Assembly (NCBI GenBank): GCA_016786845.1
Contig: JAEUVB010000019.1
Span: forward strand, 23,661-87,660
Direction of reading: 5' to 3'
DNA: 64,000 bases
DNA from: Chitinophagaceae bacterium
GTDB taxonomy: Bacteria > Bacteroidota > Bacteroidia > Chitinophagales > Chitinophagaceae
The translations under genes and the position numbers were made by a program. Within the stretch, counting starts at the first letter, position 1. Each line of letters opens with the position of its first letter. Positions 36,346 to 51,752 of this stretch are shown piece after piece. The notes under the pieces are model-generated. The model saw only the letters and a list, made by a program, of their open reading frames with translations, did no database searches and had not been told where the DNA came from.

Positions 36346-36618
36346 CGTGTCGCATTCATTGCAAAGCGTGTCGCATTCATTGCAAAACGTATCGCATCCA
36401 TTGCAAAACGCATCGCATCCATTGCAAAGCGTGTCGCATTCATTGCAAAACGTATCGCATCCATTGCAAAACGTATCGCATCCATTGCAAAACGCATCGC
36501 ATCGATTGCAAAACGTGTCGCATTCATTGCAAAGCGTGTCGCATCGATTGCAAAACGTGTCGCATTTATTGCAAAACGTGTCGACTCGATTGCAAAGCGT
36601 GTCGCATTCATTGCGAAA
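36346..36618. repeat. 13 x 21-bp tandem repeat array
   Basis: Unit CGTGTCGCATTCATTGCAAA(G/A) with a few variable positions. Unit starts counted at 36346, 36367 and so on to 36598. Confidence 0.95.
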
Positions 36619-36893
36619 CACCTAAATCCAAAAAATGGGCCCGCATATCTTAGGGCTCGTGCCCCACCTTCTTTCTTCGGGCATATCGCTGTATATAGTT
36701 ATGCATAAGTCGTGGAAGAAATGGCTCTATACCCAAAAGAGTAGAAGCGTCTATCGGATACAGCCATATGATTCTATTAAAGGATCATATCAACCGGATT
36801 CCACAAAATCTTCAACCGGATTCCATTCAAAAAGGATGGCATCCATAAAAATTAACTTTAAACAAATATTCTATAAATTTTAAAACAATCATA

Positions 36894-37841: not shown

Positions 37842-37870
37842 GTTGAATACTGAGAGCCCTGCTTCTCCGG

Positions 37871-37900
37871 GAGGCCGTCGTAAGATGGCCTCTTTTTTTT
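37871..37900 (+). terminator. Rho-independent terminator
   Basis: GAGGCC-gtcgtaagat-GGCCTC followed by a T8 run. Confidence 0.65.
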
Positions 37901-38122
37901 GGGGGGGAGAATTCCTGTTTTTGAGACTAAAATTAATAGAATTTAATAGGGCCTTGTGTCGAAGGAATGGTTTGAAAATAGATATGAGGCTTAGCAGAAT
38001 AACAAAGTCTATTTAAGAAAGCAATAATTTCTCGTTTATTCTTGTATATTCGTAATACTGTATGTCGATGAAGGATGAATTTCCGGACTTTTAACCAATT
38101 AGCGTAAAATAGACAAAAATAG

Positions 38123-39910
38123 ATGAGCATAAATACACAATCACTGCAACCCGTTATTAACTTCCTTTGGACAGTTGCGGATGATGTTTTGGTGAATACC
38201 TACCAAAAAGGAAAATACAAAGATGTTATCCTGCCAATGGTAGTTATTCGCAGACTGGACTTGCTTTTAGAACCCACCAAAGAACAGGTTTTAAAGACTT
38301 TCAACGAATACAAATCAAAACTCCAAAACTTAGACAGCTTGCTGACCAACAGTAAACACGGTTCAGGACTGGCATTTTACAATACTTCAAAGTTTACCTT
38401 AAAAAAACTGCTTGACGACCCCAAAAACCTAAGAAGCAATTTTGAAAATTACCTAAACGGATTTTCTGATAATGTGCAGGACATCATCAAGCAATTCAAA
38501 TTCAGAAATGAAATTGAAACATTAGACGAAGCCGATATTCTGTTTTCACTCATTGAAAAATTCTGTTCTCCAAAAGTGGAATTGCACCCCGACAAATTGC
38601 CACCCTTGGCAATGGGTTATGTGTATGAAGATTTGGTAAGGCGATTTAACGAAGAAAACAACGAAGAAGCAGGAGAACACTTTACGCCAAGGGAAATCAT
38701 TGATTTAATGACACACCTTGTTTTCTTGCCGGTGAAAGACAAAATCAAGCAAGGCACTTATTTGATTTACGACCCATGCGTAGGTAGCGGTGGAATGCTC
38801 ACCATTGCCAAAAACTTTTTGCTCAATCCTGATGGACTGATTAAAAGCAACGCCACCGTTCATTTATACGGACAGGAAAGCACACCTTTCATTTATGCGA
38901 CTTGCAAAAGCGATATGCTGATAAAAGGCGAAGACCCAGACAAAATTGCTTATGGCAGCACGTTGAGTGCTTATGGTTTTGACAAGGATTTGAAGTTTGA
39001 CTTCATGTTGACTAATCCGCCTTATGGAAAGACCTGGGCACCTGATAAAAAAGCATTAGGCGTTGGACCTAAAGGAGCCATCATTGACAAACGCTTTATG
39101 CTGAAAGGCAGCTACAAAGAGGAGGCTGTTACCAGCCGTGTGAATGATGGACAGTTGATGTTTGTGTTGCACATGTTGAGCAAAATGAAAGACACCGAAC
39201 TCGGCAGCCGTATTGCTTCGGTTCACAATGGTTCGGCTTTGTTTACAGGGGATGCAGGACAAGGCGAAAGCGAAATTCGCAAATACATTATTGAAAACGA
39301 TTTATTGGAAGCCATTGTAGCATTGCCCAACGATATGTTTTACAACACAGGCATCCCTACTTACATTTTTCTTTTCACCAACCGAAAAGCAAAAAACCGA
39401 AAAGGGAAAGTGCAATTGATAAATGCTACTTCCGAAAAGTTCTATTATAAAATGCGAAAGTCATTGGGTAAAAAAAGATTGGAGTTCCTACCCGAACACA
39501 TTGCTTCGATAGAAAAAACCTTCCTGAATTTTGAAGAGAACGAATACAGCAAAATATTTGACAATGAAGATTTCGGTTATGCTCAAATAAGCGTGAACCG
39601 ACCGTTGAAAGACGAGAAAGGCAATCTTGTAACCGACAGCAAAGGCAAGCCAAAACCCGACCCAAAACTGAAAGACAGCGAAAACATTCCGTTGAAAGAA
39701 GATATACAGGAATTTTTTGAACGTGAAGTGTTGCCTTTTGCTCCTGATGCTTGGTGGGATAAGAAAGACACCAAAATTGGTTATGAAATAAACTTTGCCA
39801 AATACTTCTACAAACACCAACCGCCAAGGGCATTGACAGAAATTGCGAAAGACATTTTTGCCATTGAGCAGGAAACAGACGGTTTATTAAAAGAGATTAT
39901 TGAAGCATGA
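38123..39910 (+). CDS. hsdM: type I restriction-modification system methyltransferase subunit HsdM
   Basis: 595 aa. HsdM N-terminal helix bundle, SAM motif I DPCVGSGGML, catalytic motif IV LTNPPYG. ATGA overlap with hsdS. Confidence 0.93.
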   Translation: MSINTQSLQPVINFLWTVADDVLVNTYQKGKYKDVILPMVVIRRLDLLLEPTKEQVLKTFNEYKSKLQNLDSLLTNSKHGSGLAFYNTSKFTLKKLLDDPKNLRSNFENYLNGFSDNVQDIIKQFKFRNEIETLDEADILFSLIEKFCSPKVELHPDKLPPLAMGYVYEDLVRRFNEENNEEAGEHFTPREIIDLMTHLVFLPVKDKIKQGTYLIYDPCVGSGGMLTIAKNFLLNPDGLIKSNATVHLYGQESTPFIYATCKSDMLIKGEDPDKIAYGSTLSAYGFDKDLKFDFMLTNPPYGKTWAPDKKALGVGPKGAIIDKRFMLKGSYKEEAVTSRVNDGQLMFVLHMLSKMKDTELGSRIASVHNGSALFTGDAGQGESEIRKYIIENDLLEAIVALPNDMFYNTGIPTYIFLFTNRKAKNRKGKVQLINATSEKFYYKMRKSLGKKRLEFLPEHIASIEKTFLNFEENEYSKIFDNEDFGYAQISVNRPLKDEKGNLVTDSKGKPKPDPKLKDSENIPLKEDIQEFFEREVLPFAPDAWWDKKDTKIGYEINFAKYFYKHQPPRALTEIAKDIFAIEQETDGLLKEIIEA

Positions 39911-41145
39911 TAGCAACAGCACTTTTATATAAAGAAACCGAATTTAATTGGATGCCTGTTATTCCTGAGCATTGGGAAACAAAGAGAGCTAAAGCTATAT
40001 TTCAAGAACGTTCAATAAAGGGTTTTCCAGATGATCCGCTTTTAGCAGCTTCGCAAAAACAAGGCGTTGTTTTAAAAGAAATGCTTGAGCAACGAAGTAT
40101 GGAGGCTGTTCAAAACTTTGAAAGTTTCAAACTTGTTGAGAAAGATGATTTTGTGATTAGCCTTCGTTCTTTTGAAGGCGGGATTGAATTAGCATATTAC
40201 AGAGGCATTATTAGTCCGGTCTATTCGATATTTTATTTCAGAGAAAATAAGCATAACCGAGACTTCTTTAAATATCTGTACAAGTCTAGGATGTTTATAC
40301 AAGAGTTGAATGTTTACAAGAAAGGAATTAGAGATGGACAATCGATAAGTTATAGCGAGTTTGCAAATATCTATCTTCCAGTGCCGCCCAAAGAAGAGCA
40401 AGACGAAATTGTGCAATACCTCAAAGCACAAGAAGAAAAGATAAATTTGTTTATTCAGAAGAAGCAACGGTTTATTGAGTTGTTGAAGGAACAACGTTTA
40501 AGCATTGTAAATAATTACGTTACATCTGAAAATAAAAATTGGATTTGGTTAAGATTGAAAGATATAGTAACTGTCAATGACGAAGCATTAACAGAAAAAA
40601 CTGAAGATGATTTTTTGATAAGGTATATTGATATTGGAAATGTAAATTCATACGGTGACATTGCTGAAATCCAAGAATATGAGTTTAAGGATGCTCCGTC
40701 ACGGGCAAGAAGAATAGTCAGAAAAGGTGATGTTATAATTTCAACTGTGCGAACTTATTTAAAGGCAATTACTCTGATTGAAAGTGATGAAGATAATTTA
40801 ATCGCTTCAACAGGCTTTGCTGTTCTCAGACCAAAAGAAAATGTTCTTTCTGAATATTTGAATTTTGCTTTACGTGCCGAATACTTTATAAGTTCTGTAA
40901 TTCAGAATTCCTACGGAGTAAGTTATCCAGCAATAAACTCATCCACTTTGAGTTCACTTAAAATTGTAATTCCCAAGTCAACATCAGAACAACAAGAAAT
41001 AATAAACAAGATAAAATCCGAAACCGCAACCATAGACACTGCCATAGCCAAAGCCGAACGGGAAATAGAACTTATTCGGGAATACAAAGAAGCCATGATA
41101 GCTGAGGCGGTAATGGGGAAAAGAAAAATTAACTTTGCACATTAA
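39907..41145 (+). CDS. hsdS: type I R-M specificity subunit HsdS
   Basis: 412 aa. Two variable target-recognition halves separated by conserved coiled-coil spacers (LPVPPKEEQDEIVQYL.. and IPKSTSEQQEIINKI..). Confidence 0.9.
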   Translation: MIATALLYKETEFNWMPVIPEHWETKRAKAIFQERSIKGFPDDPLLAASQKQGVVLKEMLEQRSMEAVQNFESFKLVEKDDFVISLRSFEGGIELAYYRGIISPVYSIFYFRENKHNRDFFKYLYKSRMFIQELNVYKKGIRDGQSISYSEFANIYLPVPPKEEQDEIVQYLKAQEEKINLFIQKKQRFIELLKEQRLSIVNNYVTSENKNWIWLRLKDIVTVNDEALTEKTEDDFLIRYIDIGNVNSYGDIAEIQEYEFKDAPSRARRIVRKGDVIISTVRTYLKAITLIESDEDNLIASTGFAVLRPKENVLSEYLNFALRAEYFISSVIQNSYGVSYPAINSSTLSSLKIVIPKSTSEQQEIINKIKSETATIDTAIAKAEREIELIREYKEAMIAEAVMGKRKINFAH

Positions 41146-41156
41146 TAAATTGTAGA

Positions 41157-42287
41157 ATGCTAGACGAGAATAACAATATGGTAAATGAGCCTCAGGTTGA
41201 ATATGAGGATATTGATACAGGGGTGTTAATGGAACGACCATTCAATCCTGCACAAATAGATATTTCCACAAAGAATCCTACTATTGATTTATTGGTAAAA
41301 AGATTGCAGTCTTCACCACCGGAAATAGACCTATATCCTGACTTTCAAAGAAAAGATGATTTATGGGATGCAGGTAAGCAAAGCAGATTAATTGAATCAC
41401 TTTTAATTAAATTTCCATTACCAGCATTTTATTTTGATGGAACCGATAACAATAAATGGTTAGTTGTTGATGGTTTGCAACGACTAAGTGCAATAAGGAA
41501 TTTTATGATTAAAAAATCATTAAAGTTGACAAGTCTTGAATTTTTAAAAAAACTGGAAGGTGACGGTTTTGATGATTTGCCAAGAAACCTGCAACGACAA
41601 ATCGAAGAAACACAGGTAACAGCCTACATTATTAATCCCGGAACTCCTGACGAAGTGAAGTTCAATATTTTTAGACGTGTGAACACGGGTGGATTAATAA
41701 TGGAACCGCAGGAGATTCGTCATGCAATGAATCAGGGTGTGCCAGCTGTTTATGTCAAAGAATTGGCACAAACACCTGAATTTATTGAGGCTACTGAAAA
41801 AGCCTTAAGTCCTAATAGGATGTTGGACAGAGAGTTTGTTACACGTTTTATTGCATTCTATTTGAATGACTATAAAGCCTACATCCCAGATTTAGACACG
41901 TTTATGAATTCAAGTATGAGTGCGATAAGAAACCTATCAGATTCAGATAAGGAAAAAATGAAAAAAGATTTCATTTCAGCTATGTCTCTTTCAAAAGAGA
42001 TTTTTAATAATTGGGCCTTTCGCAAATCGGATAAATACCCAGAGAAAAGAAAACCAATTAACAAAGCACTGTTTGAGGTTTGGAGTGTAACACTCGCAAG
42101 ATTGGATGATGAACAACGAAAAATTATTAAAGAGAAAAAGGATATTTTATTTTATAAGTCAATTAGCTTAGTTAAAGAGGACTCAACCTTTTTCAATAGT
42201 ATCACTACTTCAACAGGTAATAAGTCCAGTGTGGCCTATCGTTTTTCAAGTATCGAAAAAATAATTCAAGAAACATTAGAGACATGA
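41157..42287 (+). CDS. DUF262-like (ParB/sulfiredoxin-fold, GmrSD N-terminal-type) protein lacking a DUF1524 nuclease domain
   Basis: 376 aa. PDFQRKDDLWDAGKQSRLIESLL, the DGxQR motif (VVDGLQRLSAI), and FRRVNTGGLIMEPQEIRHA. Lies 11 nt after hsdS. Confidence 0.8.
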   Translation: MLDENNNMVNEPQVEYEDIDTGVLMERPFNPAQIDISTKNPTIDLLVKRLQSSPPEIDLYPDFQRKDDLWDAGKQSRLIESLLIKFPLPAFYFDGTDNNKWLVVDGLQRLSAIRNFMIKKSLKLTSLEFLKKLEGDGFDDLPRNLQRQIEETQVTAYIINPGTPDEVKFNIFRRVNTGGLIMEPQEIRHAMNQGVPAVYVKELAQTPEFIEATEKALSPNRMLDREFVTRFIAFYLNDYKAYIPDLDTFMNSSMSAIRNLSDSDKEKMKKDFISAMSLSKEIFNNWAFRKSDKYPEKRKPINKALFEVWSVTLARLDDEQRKIIKEKKDILFYKSISLVKEDSTFFNSITTSTGNKSSVAYRFSSIEKIIQETLET

Positions 42288-43381
42288 TAAAACAAATTGA
42301 AATAAAGAATTTCAAATCAATCAAAAAAGCTGAGATAAGTGTTTCAAATTTAAATCTGCTGATGGGTTTGAATGGAATGGGTAAAAGCTCATTTATACAA
42401 ACTTTGCTAATATTGATGCAAAGTGATAAACTGGAAGAAAGAGTAATTGACTTAAATGGCATTTTGGCACAAATTGGTCAAGGAAGAGACGCGCTATACC
42501 AGTATGCCGAAGAAGAAAAAATTGTTTTTGAATTAACTTTTGAAGGACATCCTAAATACTCCTGGAAATTTGCCTATCAAAAAGATAAAGAAAAACTTGC
42601 TTCTGAAAATGGTTATACCAAAGAGGAAATGAATTTTTTCAGAAAAAACACTAGTCCATTTCAATACATACCTGCAAACAGAATTGGACCAATGGATATT
42701 TACGAAGCCTCAAGTGTTGTTGTCTCGGATAAAAGGCAGTTGGGCTTATTAGGAGAGTATGCTGCTTACTACATAAATGTTTTTGGTCAGGAATATGTAA
42801 TAAGTGAGAAACTAAGGCATACAAATGCGACTTCTTCAAATTTACTATCTCAAATAAATGCGTGGATGAAAGAAATTTCACCAGGGGTGTCATTAAACAC
42901 CAAGTATGTTCCGGAAGTAAACAAGGTAATTTTAGATTACCAGTTTGACTTACTGAACGATAAAACTAACTCGTTTCGACCTAAAAATGTAGGCTTTGGT
43001 ATTTCTTATGTGTTACCGATCGTATTAGCATTACTTACCGCTGAAGAAGGGAAAATCATTGTTATTGAAAATCCTGAATCACATATTCACCCAAGAGGGC
43101 AAGCCGAATTAGGCAAGCTCATTTCATTGGCTGCAAGTATTGGAGCACAGTTGTTTGTTGAAACGCATAGCGACCATATATTAAATGGCATCCGAGTAGC
43201 GGTTAAAGAAAATTTAGTGGACAAGTCAAAAGTAAATGTGATGTATTTTGAAAAAACTACCACCGAAAAAGAGCAGTTTACAAAAATTACTCAGATAAAG
43301 GTTGATACAAAGGGAGAACTAAGTGATTATCCAAAAAATATGATTGATGAATGGGGCAATCAACTTTTTAAATTGATGTAG
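42284..43381 (+). CDS. SMC/ABC-type AAA ATPase (AAA_15/21, DUF3696-like)
   Basis: 365 aa. MIKQIEIKNFKSIK.. start, Walker A GLNGMGKSS, Walker B/D-loop IIVIENPESHIHP, H-loop ETHSDHILNGIR. ATGA overlap with the upstream gene. Confidence 0.8.
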   Translation: MIKQIEIKNFKSIKKAEISVSNLNLLMGLNGMGKSSFIQTLLILMQSDKLEERVIDLNGILAQIGQGRDALYQYAEEEKIVFELTFEGHPKYSWKFAYQKDKEKLASENGYTKEEMNFFRKNTSPFQYIPANRIGPMDIYEASSVVVSDKRQLGLLGEYAAYYINVFGQEYVISEKLRHTNATSSNLLSQINAWMKEISPGVSLNTKYVPEVNKVILDYQFDLLNDKTNSFRPKNVGFGISYVLPIVLALLTAEEGKIIVIENPESHIHPRGQAELGKLISLAASIGAQLFVETHSDHILNGIRVAVKENLVDKSKVNVMYFEKTTTEKEQFTKITQIKVDTKGELSDYPKNMIDEWGNQLFKLM

Positions 43382-43383
43382 TA

Positions 43384-44238
43384 ATGGAGGTATTTTACAA
43401 TGAACTTTCAAGCCGTCCTTTAGCCGAAAATCATGATGAGGCAAAATCAAGGGTTTTAGGTCTTCTAAATACAATGAAAAGTTTGCGAGATTTTGACATT
43501 AACATCATGCGAGCTCATAATGACTTTTACGCGGAGCAGATTTCTGAAGAATACACATTCGGGAGTTTTTTTGGCGATACATCTGTTAGTATGGATTTGA
43601 AATTACTTTTGCGAACGATTGTTGCAAACCCTTTTATTGAAGATGAAGATTCATACGAAGCTGAGCAATTCATTACAAGCACATTTTCAACTAAAAATCA
43701 AGATAATCAAGATGTAAATCCCGAAGGTCTGGCAAGTGCTTTTGTCTTTAATTCACCTTCGATTTCGTTAAGCAGCCACCCACATTGGAGAAATAATATT
43801 TTACATTTAAGTGTTACCAACGCTGATGTTCTACAAACCACAACTCAGGTTGAGATATTGAATTTGTATTCAACGGAATGCATAAATCAAGCAGTATTTC
43901 AAAGTTGGTTAAGCTATCTGAATCCGCCAATTGAGTTAAATTCAGAAGAAAATATTTACAAGGTATTTTCACCTGAACAATTTCAATTCGAAAGCAAAGC
44001 AATTCAAGACATTACATCATGGTTTTATGATGACAAAAGATATTTAATTCGTGTTAAGGAGTTACTAGAAGATATTCCACAAAACCCATTTAAAGGAGGA
44101 AAAGGTAAGACAGAACCGTTGAGTGGCAAAGGTGGGCGTGCTTCAAAGCGGATTGTAAAAAAAGATAGAATTGTTTACACATACACCGAAGATAAAATCA
44201 TCATACATCAATGTAGAGGGCATTATGATGATAAATAA
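43384..44238 (+). CDS. two-domain protein: unknown N-terminal ~190 aa fused to a complete YoeB/Txe-like mRNA interferase domain
   Basis: Residues ~192-284 align by eye along the whole of E. coli YoeB. DKRYLIRVKELLEDIPQNPFKGGKGKTEPL...KRIVKKDRIVYTYTEDKIIIHQCRGHY corresponds to DKRIVKKINELIKDTRRTPFEGKGKPEPL...RRITEEHRLVYAVTDDSLLIAACRYHY. Confidence 0.75.
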   Translation: MEVFYNELSSRPLAENHDEAKSRVLGLLNTMKSLRDFDINIMRAHNDFYAEQISEEYTFGSFFGDTSVSMDLKLLLRTIVANPFIEDEDSYEAEQFITSTFSTKNQDNQDVNPEGLASAFVFNSPSISLSSHPHWRNNILHLSVTNADVLQTTTQVEILNLYSTECINQAVFQSWLSYLNPPIELNSEENIYKVFSPEQFQFESKAIQDITSWFYDDKRYLIRVKELLEDIPQNPFKGGKGKTEPLSGKGGRASKRIVKKDRIVYTYTEDKIIIHQCRGHYDDK

Positions 44239-44247
44239 TTGAGATAA

Positions 44248-47200
44248 ATGAAAACAGATACAACAGAAAAAGGATTAGAAGCCCACATAACACGGCACTT
44301 GTGTTTGGTGAATGTTTTTGAAGAAAGGCATTTCAGCAATTACAACCGTGTAGATTGTGTTGATGAAGATTTGCTATTCAATTTTCTGCAAGCCACACAG
44401 GAAAAGGAAGTAATGAAACTGCAAACCATTCACGGCAGCAATTTTAGAAGCAAGGTTTTATATCGCGTAAACAATCAAATAAAAACCTTTGGCATTATTG
44501 AAGTTCTCCGTAAAGGAATAACAGACAATAACATTAAACTGAAATTGTTTTTTGATAAGCCAGTTTCTAACCTAAACGAAAAAGATTTAGCTCTATACGA
44601 CCAAAACATTTTCTCCGTAACAAGACAAGTTCATTACAGCAATCAAAATGAAAATTCGTTGGATTTGGTTGTATTCATAAACGGCTTACCCATCATCACT
44701 TTTGAACTGAAAAACGAACTGACCAAACAAACGGTAAAAGATGCCATCAAGCAATACAAAACCAACCGTGACCCTAGAGAAGAATTGTTTCGATTAGGTC
44801 GATGAATGGTTCACTTTGCAGTGGACAGCGAACAAATTTGGATGGCAACCCACTTGAAGGGTGAAAACACTTATTTTCTACCATTCAACAAGGGGTATAA
44901 CAATGGGGCAGGAAATCCGCCAAATCTCAACGGCATTAAAACCGATTATCTCTGGAAAGACATTTTAACCAAAGTCCGTTTAACCAACATCATTCAGAAC
45001 TACGTTCAGTTGTTTGAAGAAGAAACGGAAAAGATTCTGCCTGATGGAAAGGTAAAAAAAGAGAAAGTAAAGAAATTGATTTTTCCACGCTACCATCAAA
45101 TTGATGCGGTAGATAAACTCCTAAGTAATGCCAAAGAAAACGGAGCAGGAAAACGCTACTTAATTCAACATTCGGCAGGTTCAGGGAAATCAAATTCTAT
45201 TTCATGGTTGGCTCATCAATTGGTTGGCTTGTTTGACAAAAATAACGAGAATACCGTTTTCGATACTGTAATTGTTGTAACCGACCGTAAAGTGTTGGAT
45301 GCACAAATCCGCAACAACATCAAACAGTTTGAACAAGTAAAAGGAGTTGTAGAAGCCATTACCGAAGGAAGTAAACAACTGAAAACTGCTTTAGAAGAAG
45401 GCAAGAAAATCATCATCACCACCATTCAGAAATTCCCATACATCGTAAATGAAATTGGGGAACTGCCCGGAAATAAGTTTGCTATTATCATAGACGAAGC
45501 ACACAGCAGTCAAAGCGGAAACACCGCAGGAAAACTAAATGAAACCCTTGCCAAGGACTTTGAAAAAGTGCAGGTAGATGATGATGAATTTGTGTTTGTG
45601 GACAAAGACCAATATGACGAACTGACTTCCGAAGATTTAGTGGTGGATATTGTGAAAGGCAGAAAGATGCTGACCAATGCCAGCTATTTTGCTTTTACCG
45701 CCACCCCAAAGAACAAAACACTTGAACTGTTCGGAGAGAAATACAACGACAATGGAAAAGAGAAATTCAGGGCATTTCATCTTTACTCTATGAAACAAGC
45801 CATTGAGGAAAATTTCATTTTAGATGTATTGCAGAATTACACCACTTACCAAAGTTATTACGCTTTACTCAAGAGAATTGAAGATGACCCGGCTTATGAT
45901 AAAAACAAAGCACAGAAAAAACTGAAAATATTTGTTGAGAGCCATTCACATGCTATTGCAAAGAAAACGACTTTAATGGTTGACCATTTTATGGACAATG
46001 TAATCCGTAAATCTAAAATTAACGGATTGGCTAAAGCAATGGTAGTTACAAGCAGCCGCAGAAATGCGGTGAAATACAAAAAGGCGTTTGATAAATATTT
46101 GGCAGACACAGGAAACCCATACAAAGCAATCGTAGCTTTTTCGGGAGAAATAGACGGACAAACAGAAGCTGCATTAAATCATTTTTCAAGTGCTGCAATT
46201 CCTGACGAGTTTAAAAAATCTGAATTCCGTTTTTTGATTGTGGCAAACAAATACCAAACAGGATTTGATCAACCACTTTTGCATACTATGTATGTTGACA
46301 AGAAACTCGGTGGAGTTAATGCTGTTCAAACGCTTTCAAGACTGAACAGAACAACATCAGGAAAGAAAGACACATTTGTGTTGGACTTTGCCAATGATGC
46401 AGATGATATCAAGAAATCCTTTGACCCATTTTTTGAAACCACCATATTAGGCGAAGCTACCGACCCGAATAAACTATTTGACTTGCAAAGCTCCTTAGAT
46501 GCATTTCAGGTTTATACACCCGAACAAGTTCAGGAGTTTTCGCAAAAGATGGTTACGAATGTTCCTGTTGACCAATTGCATAGCATTTTAGATGTAGCAG
46601 CAGAAGTATTCAGAACTTGCTTAACAGAAGAACAGCAAGACGATTTTAGAGCCAAATGCAAGACTTATGTTCGCTTGTATGTTTTCCTTGCTCAAATCGT
46701 TCCATTTATAAATCCATACTTGGAAAGACTTTATTTGTTCCTGAACCACTTGCAAAACAAATTGGGCAAGCAACGTGACGAAGATTTAGCACAGGGCATT
46801 TTGGACAATATTGACATAGACAGTTACAGACTGCAAAAGGAAGGAGAATTTAATATTCAGTTGCAACAAGGTGACGAGTTAAAACCTATTCCGACAGACA
46901 TGAGAGGTGGTGCAGCCGAGCCAGAAATGGAATATTTGTCTAACATCGTAAAAGCATTTAACGACCGCTTTGGGACCCAGTTCACCAACGAAGATAAAGT
47001 TCGTAAAATGGCAACCGATCTAATGCAAGACGTAAAGGAAGACAAGGCAGCAATGGACAATATCAATGCTTCACTTCATAAAAATGACATACAAAATGCT
47101 CAAATCACTTTCACTGACATTTTGAAAGAGAAAATGATAAACCATATTGACAGTAATTTTGAAGTATTTAAGGAGTACAATGACAACCCTGAGTTCAAAG

Positions 47201-47265
47201 CGTTTTTGGCTGGTCAGATGTTTAAGTTGTTGATTAACGATATTGGATCATTTAAATCAATGTAA
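44248..47265 (+). pseudogene. hsdR: type I restriction endonuclease subunit HsdR interrupted by one in-frame TGA (44803-44805)
   Basis: The ORFs 44248-44805 (185 aa, PD-(D/E)xK nuclease part: DLVVFINGLPIITFELK) and 44806-47265 (819 aa) are in the same frame. The larger ORF carries Walker A SAGSGKSN, the DEAH box IIIDEAHSSQ, and helicase C. The junction reads ..LGR*MVHFAVD. Confidence 0.85.
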
Positions 47266-47351
47266 AAACTATTTGAAATTTAATGAATATCCAAAGTTTG
47301 AATGACAATTACCAATTAATAAATGCTTTTGAATGAAGCAAATAAACTTGT

Positions 47352-48215
47352 ATGATCAATATTCGTGAAATTTTGGATGGCCTGTATCCCGATAAAACGG
47401 GTGAAGATTTAATTTCGATACTTGAAAAAGAGGGATTTCTTGAAACGGTTAAAAAATCAGAAATCCAGTTAAACGAATTAATTCTTAATCAAAGCGATTA
47501 TGTGAAAAAGTATGGTATGATCCCTATAGGAGCTTTAATTGCCAATCAACTCACTGTAGTAAACACCAAACTAAAAGATCTTTCAAATGCCAAGCGGCAA
47601 GAACTTGAACATTTATTGAGCGATATTACTTTCAAACAATTTGAATTGCTTGCTGATCACATTAGGTTAAAGAAGAAGGAATTGTTCGAGCAAATTGCGT
47701 TTGCATTAGAGAAGACCTGCGAATATCATAACTATGACAAGCACCAGTTATTAGACTACTTGCGGATTGATTCTATATTGTCATTCAAGGCCTCAATGAA
47801 GTCGGGAGAACGATTGAAAGTAAATTTGTCAAGCATGCCTTATCTTGAATGGAATGGCGACCCTAAGCTTTTTACTGATTTCATGTCAATTTTCAAGGAA
47901 CGAGGTCTTGCGACAAGCAATTCTAGTATCTTTAAATTATTTAAGAAGCAGAATACTCCCCTTGAAATTCAATTGAATGTATTGAAGGCTGATCTAATTC
48001 TTCAATTTTTTCAATACTTAAAGTTGAACAAATTGGTTTCAATTATACCCAAGGGCAGCATATATGATGTTCTAATGGTTCATGTACTTGACTTCGAGAA
48101 GGATTTTTTGAAATATCAAACACCTAAGGCAAGAATGAATGTGCTGAAAAATAGTCATTCGAAATGGAATGAAAATCAGCAACTTATACTAAAATGGACA
48201 AAGGGAATAGTTTAA
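47352..48215 (+). CDS. hypothetical protein (no recognisable domain)
   Basis: 287-aa AT-rich ORF on the same strand, 86 nt after hsdR. I found no motif. Confidence 0.5.
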   Translation: MINIREILDGLYPDKTGEDLISILEKEGFLETVKKSEIQLNELILNQSDYVKKYGMIPIGALIANQLTVVNTKLKDLSNAKRQELEHLLSDITFKQFELLADHIRLKKKELFEQIAFALEKTCEYHNYDKHQLLDYLRIDSILSFKASMKSGERLKVNLSSMPYLEWNGDPKLFTDFMSIFKERGLATSNSSIFKLFKKQNTPLEIQLNVLKADLILQFFQYLKLNKLVSIIPKGSIYDVLMVHVLDFEKDFLKYQTPKARMNVLKNSHSKWNENQQLILKWTKGIV

Positions 48216-48311
48216 GTATACTTTACCTACTACTTTCCCTGTAACTTTCCCTATAATTATTCAGATTAGATTTTCAAGGGATAGATTGGATATTTACAAA
48301 AAATATAAATT

Positions 48312-48767
48312 ATGAATTACGTTACAAATCTTATTCAAACAAACAAATTAAAACCGGCTGATGTTATCGTATTAAAGAAAACACTCTTTGGAATGCTTGA
48401 TCATTATGCAATTTTTCTTGGCTATGATGAGTTTGGTCATCCCTTTTTTGTTGCGAATTATACTAAAGGAATAAACAGAATATCCTATGTAGAATTAAAA
48501 TCCTTTTTGCAAATAATGGAGCCCCAACGAATTGTACGATTCAATGGTACTAATTCCCAAAGAAATGCTGCTGTTCAAAGAGCAATTTCTAGATTGGGTG
48601 AACGAAACTATAACTACTTTGAAAACAATTGCGAACATTATGCCAACTATGTACAACACGGTGTTCATTATAGCAGTCAGTCAGATGCGTTTAAGGATAG
48701 TATAAAAACCGTTGTGCCACTTGCTTTGGGTGTCGCGTTTTTAGCTGCAATATTTGGGAAGGAGTAA
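48312..48767 (+). CDS. LRAT/H-rev107-like NlpC/P60-superfamily enzyme with C-terminal transmembrane anchor
   Basis: 151 aa. His31 (DHYAIFLG), His43 twelve residues later (FGHPFF), catalytic Cys107 in NNCEHYANY. C-terminal helix VVPLALGVAFLAAIFG. Confidence 0.7.
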   Translation: MNYVTNLIQTNKLKPADVIVLKKTLFGMLDHYAIFLGYDEFGHPFFVANYTKGINRISYVELKSFLQIMEPQRIVRFNGTNSQRNAAVQRAISRLGERNYNYFENNCEHYANYVQHGVHYSSQSDAFKDSIKTVVPLALGVAFLAAIFGKE

Positions 48768-48839
48768 TTTTCACTAGGCTATTCTCTAATGGTTATCTAG
48801 GTTCAGGATAGTAAATTCTGAACATCGGGATACTTCTGA

Positions 48840-50003
48840 TCATCCCAAGTCTTCAATTGGTTCAATTACATCGTTGGTGGAAGAAATTAAAACGGAACTA
48901 ATTTCATTAAAATATGGTTTTACAGCCGTATAAAGTTTATTTAAATTCTCAATTAAAAAATTAATTATATCCGTCCATTCTTCTTCATTAAAGTAGTTTA
49001 ATCCTGTTTTGTAAACAGCGACAACTGACTTTTTTAAGTTGTCGTGACGTTCCCATACAAGACCATCGCCAAAAGAATTATCGATAATGTCTTTATGTTT
49101 TAATAATGCATCAAAAAGGATTTTATTTTCAATTGCCAAGGATCTGCCAAAGTTTAATGCAACACAAGCCTGTGTGCCAGTAATAATGACTTGGAATGAG
49201 ACGTAGGTTATACCTGTCCCGCCAGCATATAAAGCGTTATCTTTTGTAGGATTCGAATTTTGAAAGAGTGCCGATTTGTTTTTGATGGAATTTAGAAATT
49301 TGGACCAAAAAGTGAGTCGGATTTTATATCGATGTCTTGCTTCTTCTTCAATATTAATTTCTTCTTGAACTTTATTCGTCATTGAGATAATATAGTCCTG
49401 GGCATCTTTAGTAGGAATTATTTGTTCTATGTTTAAAAAATTTAGTTCACCCAATTGATATGGCGTTACTTTCATACATTGTAATTGTATTTTAAAATTT
49501 AAGAGCCATAACACAGTTGAAGTTACTTCTTTCCTGAAGTTTGCTGCAACCAAAATGATCCTTTGGGTGGCCTGTTGATTGATTACAATATCTGAGTAGT
49601 CGATATCATTATAGAATTCCGTTATTAACTCTTGGGCATTTTTACCGTTTGATTGTTGATCAAGGTAACTCTGAAAAATTTTGCGGACTTCTTCCTTTGT
49701 CAGCGTGCTACAATATGACGCATATTTTAAGGCTTGCCAAGTAACATCCCTTCCTGAGTCATCTAATTTATTTTCTATGATGACTAAGTTTCCATTTTTA
49801 TCAAGTGCTAATAGATCCAATCGTTCATTTGTTTCAGAGAAATCATTGAATTCTTTTTGAATAATTAGTAATTTTTCTCCCAGGCAATCAGGGTTTTTGG
49901 CTATCCATTCTTGAAGATGTTTACGCTCTTGGAAACCCAATTCGGTAAATGTTTTTTTTAGCAGAGGAGATATAGTGTTGGTTTGCTTTTCTATTAAGAA
50001 CAT
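48840..50003 (-). CDS. PD-(D/E)xK nuclease-like N-terminal domain fused to a DUF4268-like C-terminal domain
   Basis: 387 aa. ERLDLLALDKNGNLVIIENKLDD (D..ExK) near the N-terminus. The C-terminal half (FWSKFLNSIK...GLVWER..) resembles DUF4268. Confidence 0.6.
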   Translation of the reverse strand: MFLIEKQTNTISPLLKKTFTELGFQERKHLQEWIAKNPDCLGEKLLIIQKEFNDFSETNERLDLLALDKNGNLVIIENKLDDSGRDVTWQALKYASYCSTLTKEEVRKIFQSYLDQQSNGKNAQELITEFYNDIDYSDIVINQQATQRIILVAANFRKEVTSTVLWLLNFKIQLQCMKVTPYQLGELNFLNIEQIIPTKDAQDYIISMTNKVQEEINIEEEARHRYKIRLTFWSKFLNSIKNKSALFQNSNPTKDNALYAGGTGITYVSFQVIITGTQACVALNFGRSLAIENKILFDALLKHKDIIDNSFGDGLVWERHDNLKKSVVAVYKTGLNYFNEEEWTDIINFLIENLNKLYTAVKPYFNEISSVLISSTNDVIEPIEDLG

Positions 50004-50042
50004 GTTTTCAATTTAACGGTTTAAAAATGCGGTATACTAGAG

Positions 50043-50050
50043 CAAAAGTA
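50043..50050 (-). promoter_or_regulatory. candidate -7 promoter box for the 48840-50003 gene
   Basis: The minus strand reads TACTTTTG (a TAnnTTTG match) about 40 nt upstream of the ATG at 50003. Confidence 0.25.
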
Positions 50051-50136
50051 GACCACAAAGTACATTATTTAATACAAATTATTCTTGTGAAACATTCACA
50101 CTGTTGGCTTTTTGTAATTGGGTGCCAGTTAAACAA

Positions 50137-50250
50137 GATTTTCAATCTTGCCCTAAAAGATCAAATCAAACAATCTCAGTAAATAGGAGATGGAGGTGTC
50201 AGATCGCAGATTTGTTTTATCCGGGTATAGGATTGCAAATCCTGAACAGC
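50137..50250. repeat. ~115-bp direct repeat, copy 1
   Basis: Roughly 85% identical by eye to 51753-51867. Shared core AGATGGAGGTGTCAGATCGCAGAT and GGGTATAGGATT(G/A)CAAAT. Contains the hairpin AGGATT-gcaa-ATCCT. Confidence 0.85.
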
Positions 50251-50276
50251 TAGAGAACAGCGAGCTTCTCATTTAA

Positions 50277-50939
50277 TTACTCCTGTTTCCCCGGAAACAC
50301 ATCTTTAGAGCAGATTACAAAGAATTTTCTATTGAATTGGTCCTGTTTGTTGATATAGGTATTTACTTGTTTTCTGGCCATTGAGTCTGAAGGATCATTC
50401 AGGATTTTGCGCATTGCAGGGTGGAGGTATTGAGTGAAGTTAACGGAGATGTCTTCATAAGCTTTAAAGACGGTGGTATCTGTAAAGCTGTTTTGGATAA
50501 AGGCCCGATTGTAGGCGTCATTCTTTGACCATTCATCTATTGAGTTATAATATTTCTCTTTTTGTTGGAGAATAATATCCTGATCTTTATTCTCTTCTAT
50601 ATAGGTAGCCAGTCTGCGAGCATGGAGATAGCGAGTAGTTACAATATCGCTAATTTTCTTATAAAACTCTGTCATTTCATGCTGCTTATTTTCGTAGTTG
50701 ATGGCTTGTTTTTGATAATCGTACATTTTCTTCTGATAAACGTATGATATAAAACCACCTACCATGGCAGTTAGCGTAAAGCCAATGAGAAGCAAGTAAA
50801 CGTCGTGGTATTTTCCCAGTGGTTTTAAAATGGTCTGCTTCTCTTTATCTTGAATCAAAGCATGGAGTTGATTTTGAATGGAAGAAATTTGATTGCTTAT
50901 TTCCTCTAAATTCATTGTTTCATTTGGTTTATTATCCAT
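50277..50939 (-). CDS. hypothetical single-pass membrane protein
   Basis: 220 aa. N-terminal coiled-coil-like segment, one TM (VYLLLIGFTLTAMVGGFISYVY), helical C-terminal domain. Its start lies 39 nt downstream of the stop of the GIY-YIG gene (both minus strand). Confidence 0.55.
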   Translation of the reverse strand: MDNKPNETMNLEEISNQISSIQNQLHALIQDKEKQTILKPLGKYHDVYLLLIGFTLTAMVGGFISYVYQKKMYDYQKQAINYENKQHEMTEFYKKISDIVTTRYLHARRLATYIEENKDQDIILQQKEKYYNSIDEWSKNDAYNRAFIQNSFTDTTVFKAYEDISVNFTQYLHPAMRKILNDPSDSMARKQVNTYINKQDQFNRKFFVICSKDVFPGKQE

Positions 50940-50978
50940 GTTTGTATTTTTTAAGGGGTTAATTTTTAGGAATCCATC

Positions 50979-51602
50979 CTATTCTTCCATAGGATATGTT
51001 TGGTTATAAATTTTTCTAAGAGGGATGCCGTTATATGTCCAATACGGACCCGGGGCCACATGATAAGAGTTGTCTAGAATAACACGAGTCGCATAGGTTA
51101 GTGATCGTTCTTCTCCCCTAAACATTACATTGCGATCATTAACAACCTGAACGACTTCTCCATTTGTTACATTGACTAATTCACTTCCAATAGGAATATT
51201 CATTTCGTTAAAATTAAATCGAGGTCTTTTCTTTTTGCCATAGGCCATACCTGCATCGCGGTCTACCTCATCTACAACTTCTTTTTCTGAAGCTACTTGA
51301 GGTGAAACATTTTGCAATTCCATCAATTTAATGATTGCAATAGCCTGAGAGGCTTCTATTTCGAAAAATTCACGATTAGGATTCAATCTATCCGGTCCAA
51401 AGGCGATATGTAATGCCTTTTCAACTTTTTCATAGTTAGATACTTTGGCAGCATATACACATTCAAAAGGAAGTGGCACACCGGTACTATATAATTGCGA
51501 CATTCTATATTTTACATCTTCTTGATTGGTTCTTCCAATTTTTATAATACCCGGCATAGCAGGATTTGTAAGCACATATACAATACCTTGGTTATTTTCC
51601 AT
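50979..51602 (-). CDS. GIY-YIG / T5orf172-like nuclease-domain protein
   Basis: GIVYVLTNPAMPGIIKIGRT..RMSQLYSTGVPLPFECVYA...NREFFEI matches the T5orf172/MUG113-type GIY-YIG layout. The C-terminal ~90 aa is unassigned. Confidence 0.7.
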   Translation of the reverse strand: MENNQGIVYVLTNPAMPGIIKIGRTNQEDVKYRMSQLYSTGVPLPFECVYAAKVSNYEKVEKALHIAFGPDRLNPNREFFEIEASQAIAIIKLMELQNVSPQVASEKEVVDEVDRDAGMAYGKKKRPRFNFNEMNIPIGSELVNVTNGEVVQVVNDRNVMFRGEERSLTYATRVILDNSYHVAPGPYWTYNGIPLRKIYNQTYPMEE

Positions 51603-51752
51603 TTCTTAGATTTACATAAAGTTAAAAATAATATTGAATAATAGGTTTAGGTCATAAAGGGATCTTTTGAAATTTGCTATTGTGAGGTTCTCTTCTGCTG
51701 AGGCTATTTTATCAGGATGTTCGCACTTTGTAAAGACGCGCGAGGATCTGGG

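Follow-up and report, generated by a model that had tools for sequence, protein, structure and literature searches.

We describe here a three-gene cassette at positions 41157 to 44238 of a 64,000-nucleotide stretch of contig JAEUVB010000019.1 (assembly GCA_016786845.1), from an uncultured Chitinophagaceae bacterium; the whole stretch is referred to below as the window. The cassette lies between hsdS and hsdR of a type I restriction-modification (R-M) locus and, judged by profile matches, motifs, and predicted folds, is very probably a Type I Menshen (NsnABC) antiphage system with a YoeB-type effector. The genes and domains of the locus are listed below by coordinates and strand; the scores given for profile matches here and in the text are E values unless a unit is stated.

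38123..39910, + strand: hsdM, type I R-M methyltransferase, the first gene of the block (Pfam HsdM_N and N6_Mtase; PADLOC MTase_I, 6e-236)
39907..41145, + strand: hsdS, type I specificity subunit with a variable target recognition domain (TRD) region (Pfam Methylase_S; PADLOC Specificity_I, 2e-69)
41157..42287, + strand: nsnA (gene 1), 376 amino acids (aa), predicted Menshen sensor (PADLOC NsnA; Pfam GmrSD_N)
42284..43381, + strand: nsnB (gene 2), 365 aa, predicted transducer, an ABC-type ATPase with a DUF3696 tail (PADLOC NsnB; Pfam)
43384..44238, + strand: nsnC (gene 3), 284 aa, an NsnC-N region followed by a YoeB-type C-terminal RNase domain
43384..43986, + strand: N-terminal domain of nsnC, residues 1 to about 200, the hypervariable NsnC-N region, named "inPIN" in the literature (PADLOC NsnC profiles)
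43987..44238, + strand: C-terminal YoeB-type RNase domain of nsnC (BECR/RelE superfamily), the predicted effector (Pfam YoeB_toxin, TIGR02116, Foldseek)
44248..44805, + strand: 5′ fragment of hsdR, 185 aa, ending at an in-frame TGA (Pfam HSDR_N nuclease domain with D...ELK)
44806..47265, + strand: 3′ fragment of hsdR, 819 aa, with the motor domains (Pfam SWI2_SNF2, ResIII, and T1R_D3-like)

A first-pass annotation, made from the DNA letters and a list of open reading frames (ORFs), had described same-strand packing of the ORFs from 38123 to 47265, and the coordinates and directly read junctions agree with it. ATGA overlaps of 4 nucleotides (nt) join hsdM to hsdS (at 39907) and nsnA to nsnB (at 42284), and gaps of 11, 2, and 9 nt separate hsdS from nsnA, nsnB from nsnC, and nsnC from hsdR, respectively. 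The same annotation counted seven ORFs; seven frames do exist, but two of them belong to one hsdR gene that is cut by an in-frame TGA at 44803-44805, a point on which it made no comment. No terminator-like site was found on the + strand from 38972 to 47265, and the only strong terminator-like hairpin of the same scan is at 37869-37894, upstream of hsdM. A sigma-70 promoter scan, using a model unsuited to Bacteroidota, gave background-level scores. Cotranscription from hsdM to hsdR is plausible, this and any translational coupling being judged from the spacing only.

NsnA matches the PADLOC NsnA profile PDLC03877 at 7e-134, with residues 13-375 aligned to profile positions 23-384 of 385. Its sole Pfam domain is GmrSD_N/DUF262 (residues 59-190, 2e-19), and the Pfam scan found no match to DUF1524, in line with the first-pass view of gene 1 as a DUF262 protein without the DUF1524/HNH half. 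The translation contains FQRKDDLW (QR..W), VDGLQR (DGLQR, or DGxQR in general form), and FRRVN (F...N). Two of the three signatures originally cited for DUF262, FQR..W and DGxQR, are thus present as described; the third motif reads FRRVNTGGLIMEPQEIR and has Met at the expected "N.GG..L" position. The PD-T4-2_A profile also matches NsnA, more weakly, at 6e-35. An extra N-terminal domain is absent from NsnA, which makes the locus a "Type I Menshen" in the terms of Li et al. (2025, NAR 53:gkaf357; PMC12065111).

NsnB matches the PADLOC NsnB profile at 6e-110 over profile positions 1-343 of 345 and contains the Pfam domains AAA_15 (3.5e-24), AAA_21 (4e-19), and DUF3696 (5e-9). These domains, together with a Walker A motif (GLNGMGKS), a Walker B motif (IIVIENPE), and an H-loop (ETHSDH) in the translation, uphold the earlier description of gene 2 as a Walker A/Walker B/H-loop ATPase. 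"EN" replaces "DE" in Walker B and GFG replaces the SGG signature; Li et al. list the "EN" Walker B and GxG for SGG as NsnB-specific features (PMC12065111). The competing AriA, GajA, and HEC ATPase profiles in PADLOC reach only 1e-14 to 5e-32.

Gene 3 had been said to end in a full YoeB-like RNase domain, and each line of evidence agrees. Pfam YoeB_toxin (PF06769) covers NsnC residues 202-281 through all 80 of its 80 positions (8e-17), and NCBIfam TIGR02116 matches at 57 bits, above its curated cutoff of 51.8. Alignment to 2a6q chain E places all four catalytic residues of Escherichia coli YoeB (E46, R65, H83, and Y84) in NsnC. The best Foldseek match of the AlphaFold2 model of NsnC (predicted local distance difference test score [pLDDT], 88.9) is YoeB 2a6r, with a template modeling (TM) score of 0.86 and a root mean square deviation of 2.1 Å; the full-length protein matches only YoeB and RelE, always through the C-terminal domain. 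All 110 full-length NsnC homologues share a length of about 280 aa and contain PF06769, and databases name them "Txe/YoeB family addiction module toxin." Upstream of this domain, residues 1-181 match seven of the NsnC profiles in PADLOC, with E values of 1e-29 at best and of 3e-20 and 2e-13 for two others, and the N-terminal domain modeled alone by AlphaFold2 reaches a pLDDT of 90.7. Among the Pfam families named beforehand for the three proteins, DUF262, AAA_15, AAA_21, DUF3696, and YoeB_toxin are therefore supported and DUF1524 is not.

No YefM/Phd antitoxin gene lies beside nsnC, which is flanked by nsnB (2 nt away) and hsdR (9 nt away). This leaves no room for a YefM antitoxin, so the YoeB-type toxin must be restrained inside the system, most plausibly by NsnB, as in the published complex model.

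Because the trio matches the PADLOC NsnA, NsnB, and NsnC profiles, it is not an undescribed defense module, and the first-pass statement that no named system has this composition does not hold: Menshen was named by Millman et al. in 2022. According to the account in PMC12065111, the S. silvestris system protected against T2, T4, T6, and Fado. Li et al. collected 1997 Menshen loci and proposed a model in which NsnA is the sensor, NsnB the transducer, and NsnC the effector; the logic put forward from the sequence, in which DUF262 and ATPase components sense and thereby control an RNase, is essentially this model (PMC12065111). The exchangeable NsnC-C effector nucleases include BECR, Toprim, and PLD types, YoeB is among nine BECR RNase families found at the NsnC C terminus, and an NsnB4-NsnC2 complex model resembles assemblies of the PARIS/Septu/Gabija type (PMC12065111). 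The association of Menshen with type I R-M appears in Fig. 7D of the same paper, where 27.9% of operons have a link to R-M or BREX. Both YoeB as an NsnC effector and the type I R-M association were thus already published; the description as a three-gene defense module is sound.

In detail, the copy described here shares with Menshen the order nsnA-nsnB-nsnC, a DUF262 NsnA without DUF1524 whose C-terminal half (ParBDB in Li et al. 2025) is covered by the profile, an NsnB ABC ATPase that has the EN Walker B and GxG variants and ends in DUF3696, and an NsnC with a variable N terminus and a C-terminal BECR RNase. It differs from the tested S. silvestris system, which ends in PB-BECR1 (YafQ-like) and not in YoeB, and in its setting, exactly between hsdS and a stop-interrupted hsdR.

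The gene order was surveyed in relatives. A search at E ≤ 1e-10 returned 7972 NsnA relatives, a protein identical to NsnA is annotated in a Chitinophagaceae metagenome-assembled genome, and 80 genome loci encoding NsnA relatives of 50 to 95% identity were sampled and their ORFs searched with the proteins of the window. nsnB follows nsnA in all 72 of the 72 loci with enough sequence, and a gene encoding an NsnC-N-like region comes next in 59 of the 67 loci with enough downstream sequence; 26 of those 59 have a YoeB-like end. The three genes thus clearly colocalize. They also recur inside type I R-M operons: among the 53 loci with both flanks judgeable, 13 have the trio between hsdS and hsdR, 1 has hsdS only, and 39 have neither, the embedded count being a minimum, since R-M genes unlike those of the window would escape detection. 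The embedded arrangement is therefore a recurrent but minority state. Most embedded loci keep tight junctions of 2-11 nt to hsdS and hsdR. The identity of the three proteins, their conserved gene order, the recurring embedded arrangement, and the intact YoeB residues are direct observations.

Comparison of embedded loci (designated by L numbers) indicates exchange of cassettes within a conserved R-M frame. Between the window and L004, the hsdM, nsnA, nsnB, and hsdR DNA is 87 to 93% identical, and similarity is lost across two segments, the hsdS variable region (39943 to 41011) and nsnC (43410-44248), the latter between nsnB and hsdR flanks that are 87 to 88% identical. In L063, L068, and L078, the HsdM and HsdR proteins are 85 to 95% identical to those of the window, but NsnA and NsnB are only 44 to 53% identical. 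On these alignments, one R-M frame carries differing Menshen cassettes and nsnC is swapped as a precise unit, in agreement with the shuffling that Li et al. describe (PMC12065111); the pattern suggests that this R-M family has a favored site at its hsdS-hsdR junction, and it is the one hint toward the PrrC-like reading taken up below. Between hsdM and hsdS, which overlap by 4 nt in the window, 0.6 to 1.9 kb of extra sequence is present in L005, L010, L058, L063, L068, L075, and L078, and this may hold further embedded genes.

The hsdR gene downstream of the cassette is interrupted. In homologues the gene is one ORF of about 1000 aa; here an in-frame TGA (44803-44805) is followed directly by an ATG in the same frame. 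Of 10 intact homologues, 9 have Cys (TGY) where the TGA stands and the tenth has Leu. The same split into 185 and 819 aa is called in three separate metagenome assemblies, and a sequencing error was rejected on that ground. A TGA aligned with a conserved Cys is a classic sign of a selenoprotein. Selenocysteine was nevertheless rejected: no SECIS-like structure is present, as the RNA downstream folds no better than shuffled sequence (z, −0.89), and the Leu in one homologue, the use of TGA as the stop codon of hsdM and nsnA, and the absence of any tRNA gene from the window also oppose it. By the alignment and the concordant assemblies, the TGA is a real nonsense mutation that parts the PD-(D/E)xK nuclease domain from the motor. 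Restriction has probably been lost or impaired, leaving a restriction-negative, modification-positive (r− m+) type I system unless the halves reassemble after reinitiation. The nsnABC genes are intact despite the broken hsdR, which fits poorly with a sole role as a backup for a working R-M enzyme. A coupling of Menshen to the HsdM-HsdS methylase would still be compatible with the broken gene.

A mechanism can be proposed from the published model and the chemistry of the domains. NsnA, a ParB-like DUF262 NTPase with a DNA-binding C-terminal half, would sense invading phage DNA and signal to NsnB, which would hold or gate NsnC through ATP binding or hydrolysis. Once freed or activated, NsnC would cleave mRNA at the ribosomal A site through its YoeB-type domain, translation would halt, and the infection would be aborted or stalled. 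The trigger, the signaling order, the RNA target, and the abortive outcome are all inferred on this basis.

Several points weigh against the assignment to Menshen and its proposed action. The PADLOC NsnC match is limited to the N-terminal part of the profile. A Foldseek search of the PDB with the modeled NsnC N-terminal domain gave no significant match, PIN folds included, so that the "inactive PIN" (inPIN) label for NsnC-N, which denotes a PIN-like fold lacking the catalytic D-E-D-D residues, is not confirmed here by model and search; a 2026 preprint, moreover, disputes the inactivity of PIN-like domains in some Menshen families. The signaling order and the RNA target for Menshen systems ending in YoeB rest on models. 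Finally, some functional coupling with R-M is possible, given how closely the trio is packed with hsdMSR and how the embedded arrangement recurs.

Such coupling is central to the PrrC-like backup that the first-pass annotation had envisaged, in which the R-M complex would silence the trio and a phage anti-restriction protein that disables HsdMSR would free NsnABC, the YoeB domain then stopping translation. The hsdS-hsdR position is that of prrC in the E. coli prr locus (EcoprrI), PrrC also combines an ABC-type ATPase with a translation-stopping RNase, and anti-restriction proteins trigger other ABC-ATPase defenses; Li et al. had already drawn the analogy with PrrC and RloC (PMC12065111). The tight junctions kept in most embedded relatives and the 13 embedded loci are in keeping with a guard of this kind, and the conserved R-M frames around diverged Menshen cassettes in L063, L068, and L078 suggest that the linkage is selected. 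PrrC, however, hardly ever occurs outside type I R-M, whereas Menshen lies mostly outside R-M operons, 39 of the 53 judgeable relatives having no such hsdS or hsdR neighbor. The reference Menshen protected both E. coli and B. subtilis against phages, with no mention of a type I R-M partner (PMC12065111). In the window itself, a nonsense codon interrupts hsdR, but the three nsn genes are whole and the YoeB catalytic residues are all kept. The architecture also differs: PrrC is a single polypeptide with its ATPase fused to a tRNA-Lys anticodon nuclease, a fusion that Pfam does not find here, and NsnB (365 aa) has no nuclease domain; Menshen comprises three proteins, with an added DUF262 sensor and, in this copy, the fold of a ribosome-dependent mRNase. 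Masking by R-M is a property of PrrC and, for Menshen, a conjecture. We regard the guard as unlikely. A broader form of coupling, in which Menshen lodged between hsdS and hsdR would read, for example, the HsdM2S1(R) state or its inhibition by anti-restriction, with the junction serving as a selected docking site that exchanges Menshen variants and nsnC cassettes, is speculative and, in our estimation, similarly improbable. Embedding in the operon does link the inheritance and expression of Menshen and R-M, and the evidence points to Menshen here as an autonomous module rather than one needing the R-M complex.

Two further explanations would separate the locus from phage defense by Menshen altogether. 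The YoeB-type toxin, held by NsnA and NsnB, might serve mainly to stabilize the R-M operon or the island against loss, in the manner of a toxin-antitoxin system, rather than act against phages; YoeB is a classical type II toxin-antitoxin domain, NsnC ends in a complete YoeB fold of 80 residues in which the four catalytic residues are kept, the database name denotes an addiction module, and the locus sits in a low-GC (guanine-plus-cytosine) island that was probably acquired horizontally. In YoeB-YefM, though, the toxin is small and free-standing, and here it is part of a 284-aa protein, is fused to an N-terminal domain of 200 residues, and always follows nsnA and nsnB, with nsnB and hsdR in the places where a YefM/Phd gene might stand; this and the phage defense published for a Menshen family member, as related in PMC12065111, make an addiction module very unlikely. 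Least probable, to the point of being scarcely credible, is the idea that some other DUF262 system (PD-T4-2, or a modification-dependent nuclease like GmrSD or SspE) adjoins a lone YoeB toxin with which it has nothing to do. Gene 1 does match GmrSD_N and PD-T4-2_A and shares with GmrSD, SspE, and PD-T4-2 the DUF262 NTPase sensor domain with QR..W, DGxQR, and F...N, yet in GmrSD and SspE this domain is fused to a DUF1524 (HNH-like) nuclease, which is missing from the trio, the NsnA profile outscores PD-T4-2_A by about 100 orders of magnitude, and the NsnC N-terminal region in gene 3 means that gene 3 is not a solitary toxin. PARIS (AriAB), Septu (PtuAB), and Gabija (GajAB) resemble the trio in having an AAA_15/21-type ABC ATPase that regulates a bound nuclease toxin, and the AriA and GajA profiles match NsnB less well than its own profile does; these systems lack a DUF262 partner and have Toprim or HNH effectors, not a BECR RNase. 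PD-T4-2, GmrSD, Septu, PARIS, and Gabija were accordingly rejected as identities, each being either weaker than the Nsn profiles or without its defining domain.

The R-M locus and its Menshen cassette lie in a stretch of about 37900-51700 with a GC content of 33 to 38%, compared with 45 to 53% in the flanks. No integrase was found by Pfam among the ORFs scanned on either side of it. The low-GC stretch looks like a defense island of foreign origin.

Downstream of hsdR on the + strand is a gene pair encoding a 287-aa protein (47352-48215), without a match in Pfam, PADLOC, NCBIfam, or PHROGs, and a 151-aa LRAT/H-Rev107-like protein of the NlpC/P60 superfamily (48312-48767), with an NCEH catalytic motif and a hydrophobic C-terminal tail. 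The pair was found in five contexts: the window, L013 (13614-15087), L080 (4241-5679), L084 (8001-9423), and L086 (3595-4999). Type I R-M genes, drawn from more than one family, adjoin it in four of the five: hsdR precedes it in the window and in L013, hsdS plus a 109-aa gene does so in L084, and hsdS plus a reverse-transcriptase gene does so in L086. The L080 copy is about 5 kb upstream of nsnA. From its composition and placement, the pair could be an undescribed two-gene defense-island module with a PLAAT-like lipid-modifying effector.

Farther right, on the − strand, 48840-50003 encodes a 387-aa protein with DUF4268 and a NucS/PD-(D/E)xK-like N-terminal domain, which matches the PADLOC candidate defense family PDC-S11 at 4e-150. 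A 220-aa protein (50277-50939, − strand), for which no family match was found, adjoins a T5orf172/MUG113 (GIY-YIG-like) protein (50979-51602, − strand) at the right edge of the island; PHROGs searches of the neighboring unknown genes were likewise null. To the left, about 1.5 kb upstream of hsdM, 13 tandem copies of a 21-bp unit with 87% matches occupy 36346-36619 and give rise to spurious repeat-peptide ORFs on both strands.

The locus is a further Bacteroidota example of a system that PADLOC and DefenseFinder already include and that had been surveyed before in about 2000 genomes. Its YoeB-type end predicts ribosome-dependent cleavage of mRNA at the A site, which is readily assayed. Loci that combine a near-identical R-M frame with differing Menshen cassettes, together with the present copy with its disrupted hsdR, provide material for distinguishing functional coupling from linked inheritance. 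If coupling were true, Menshen would be a multiprotein analogue of PrrC.

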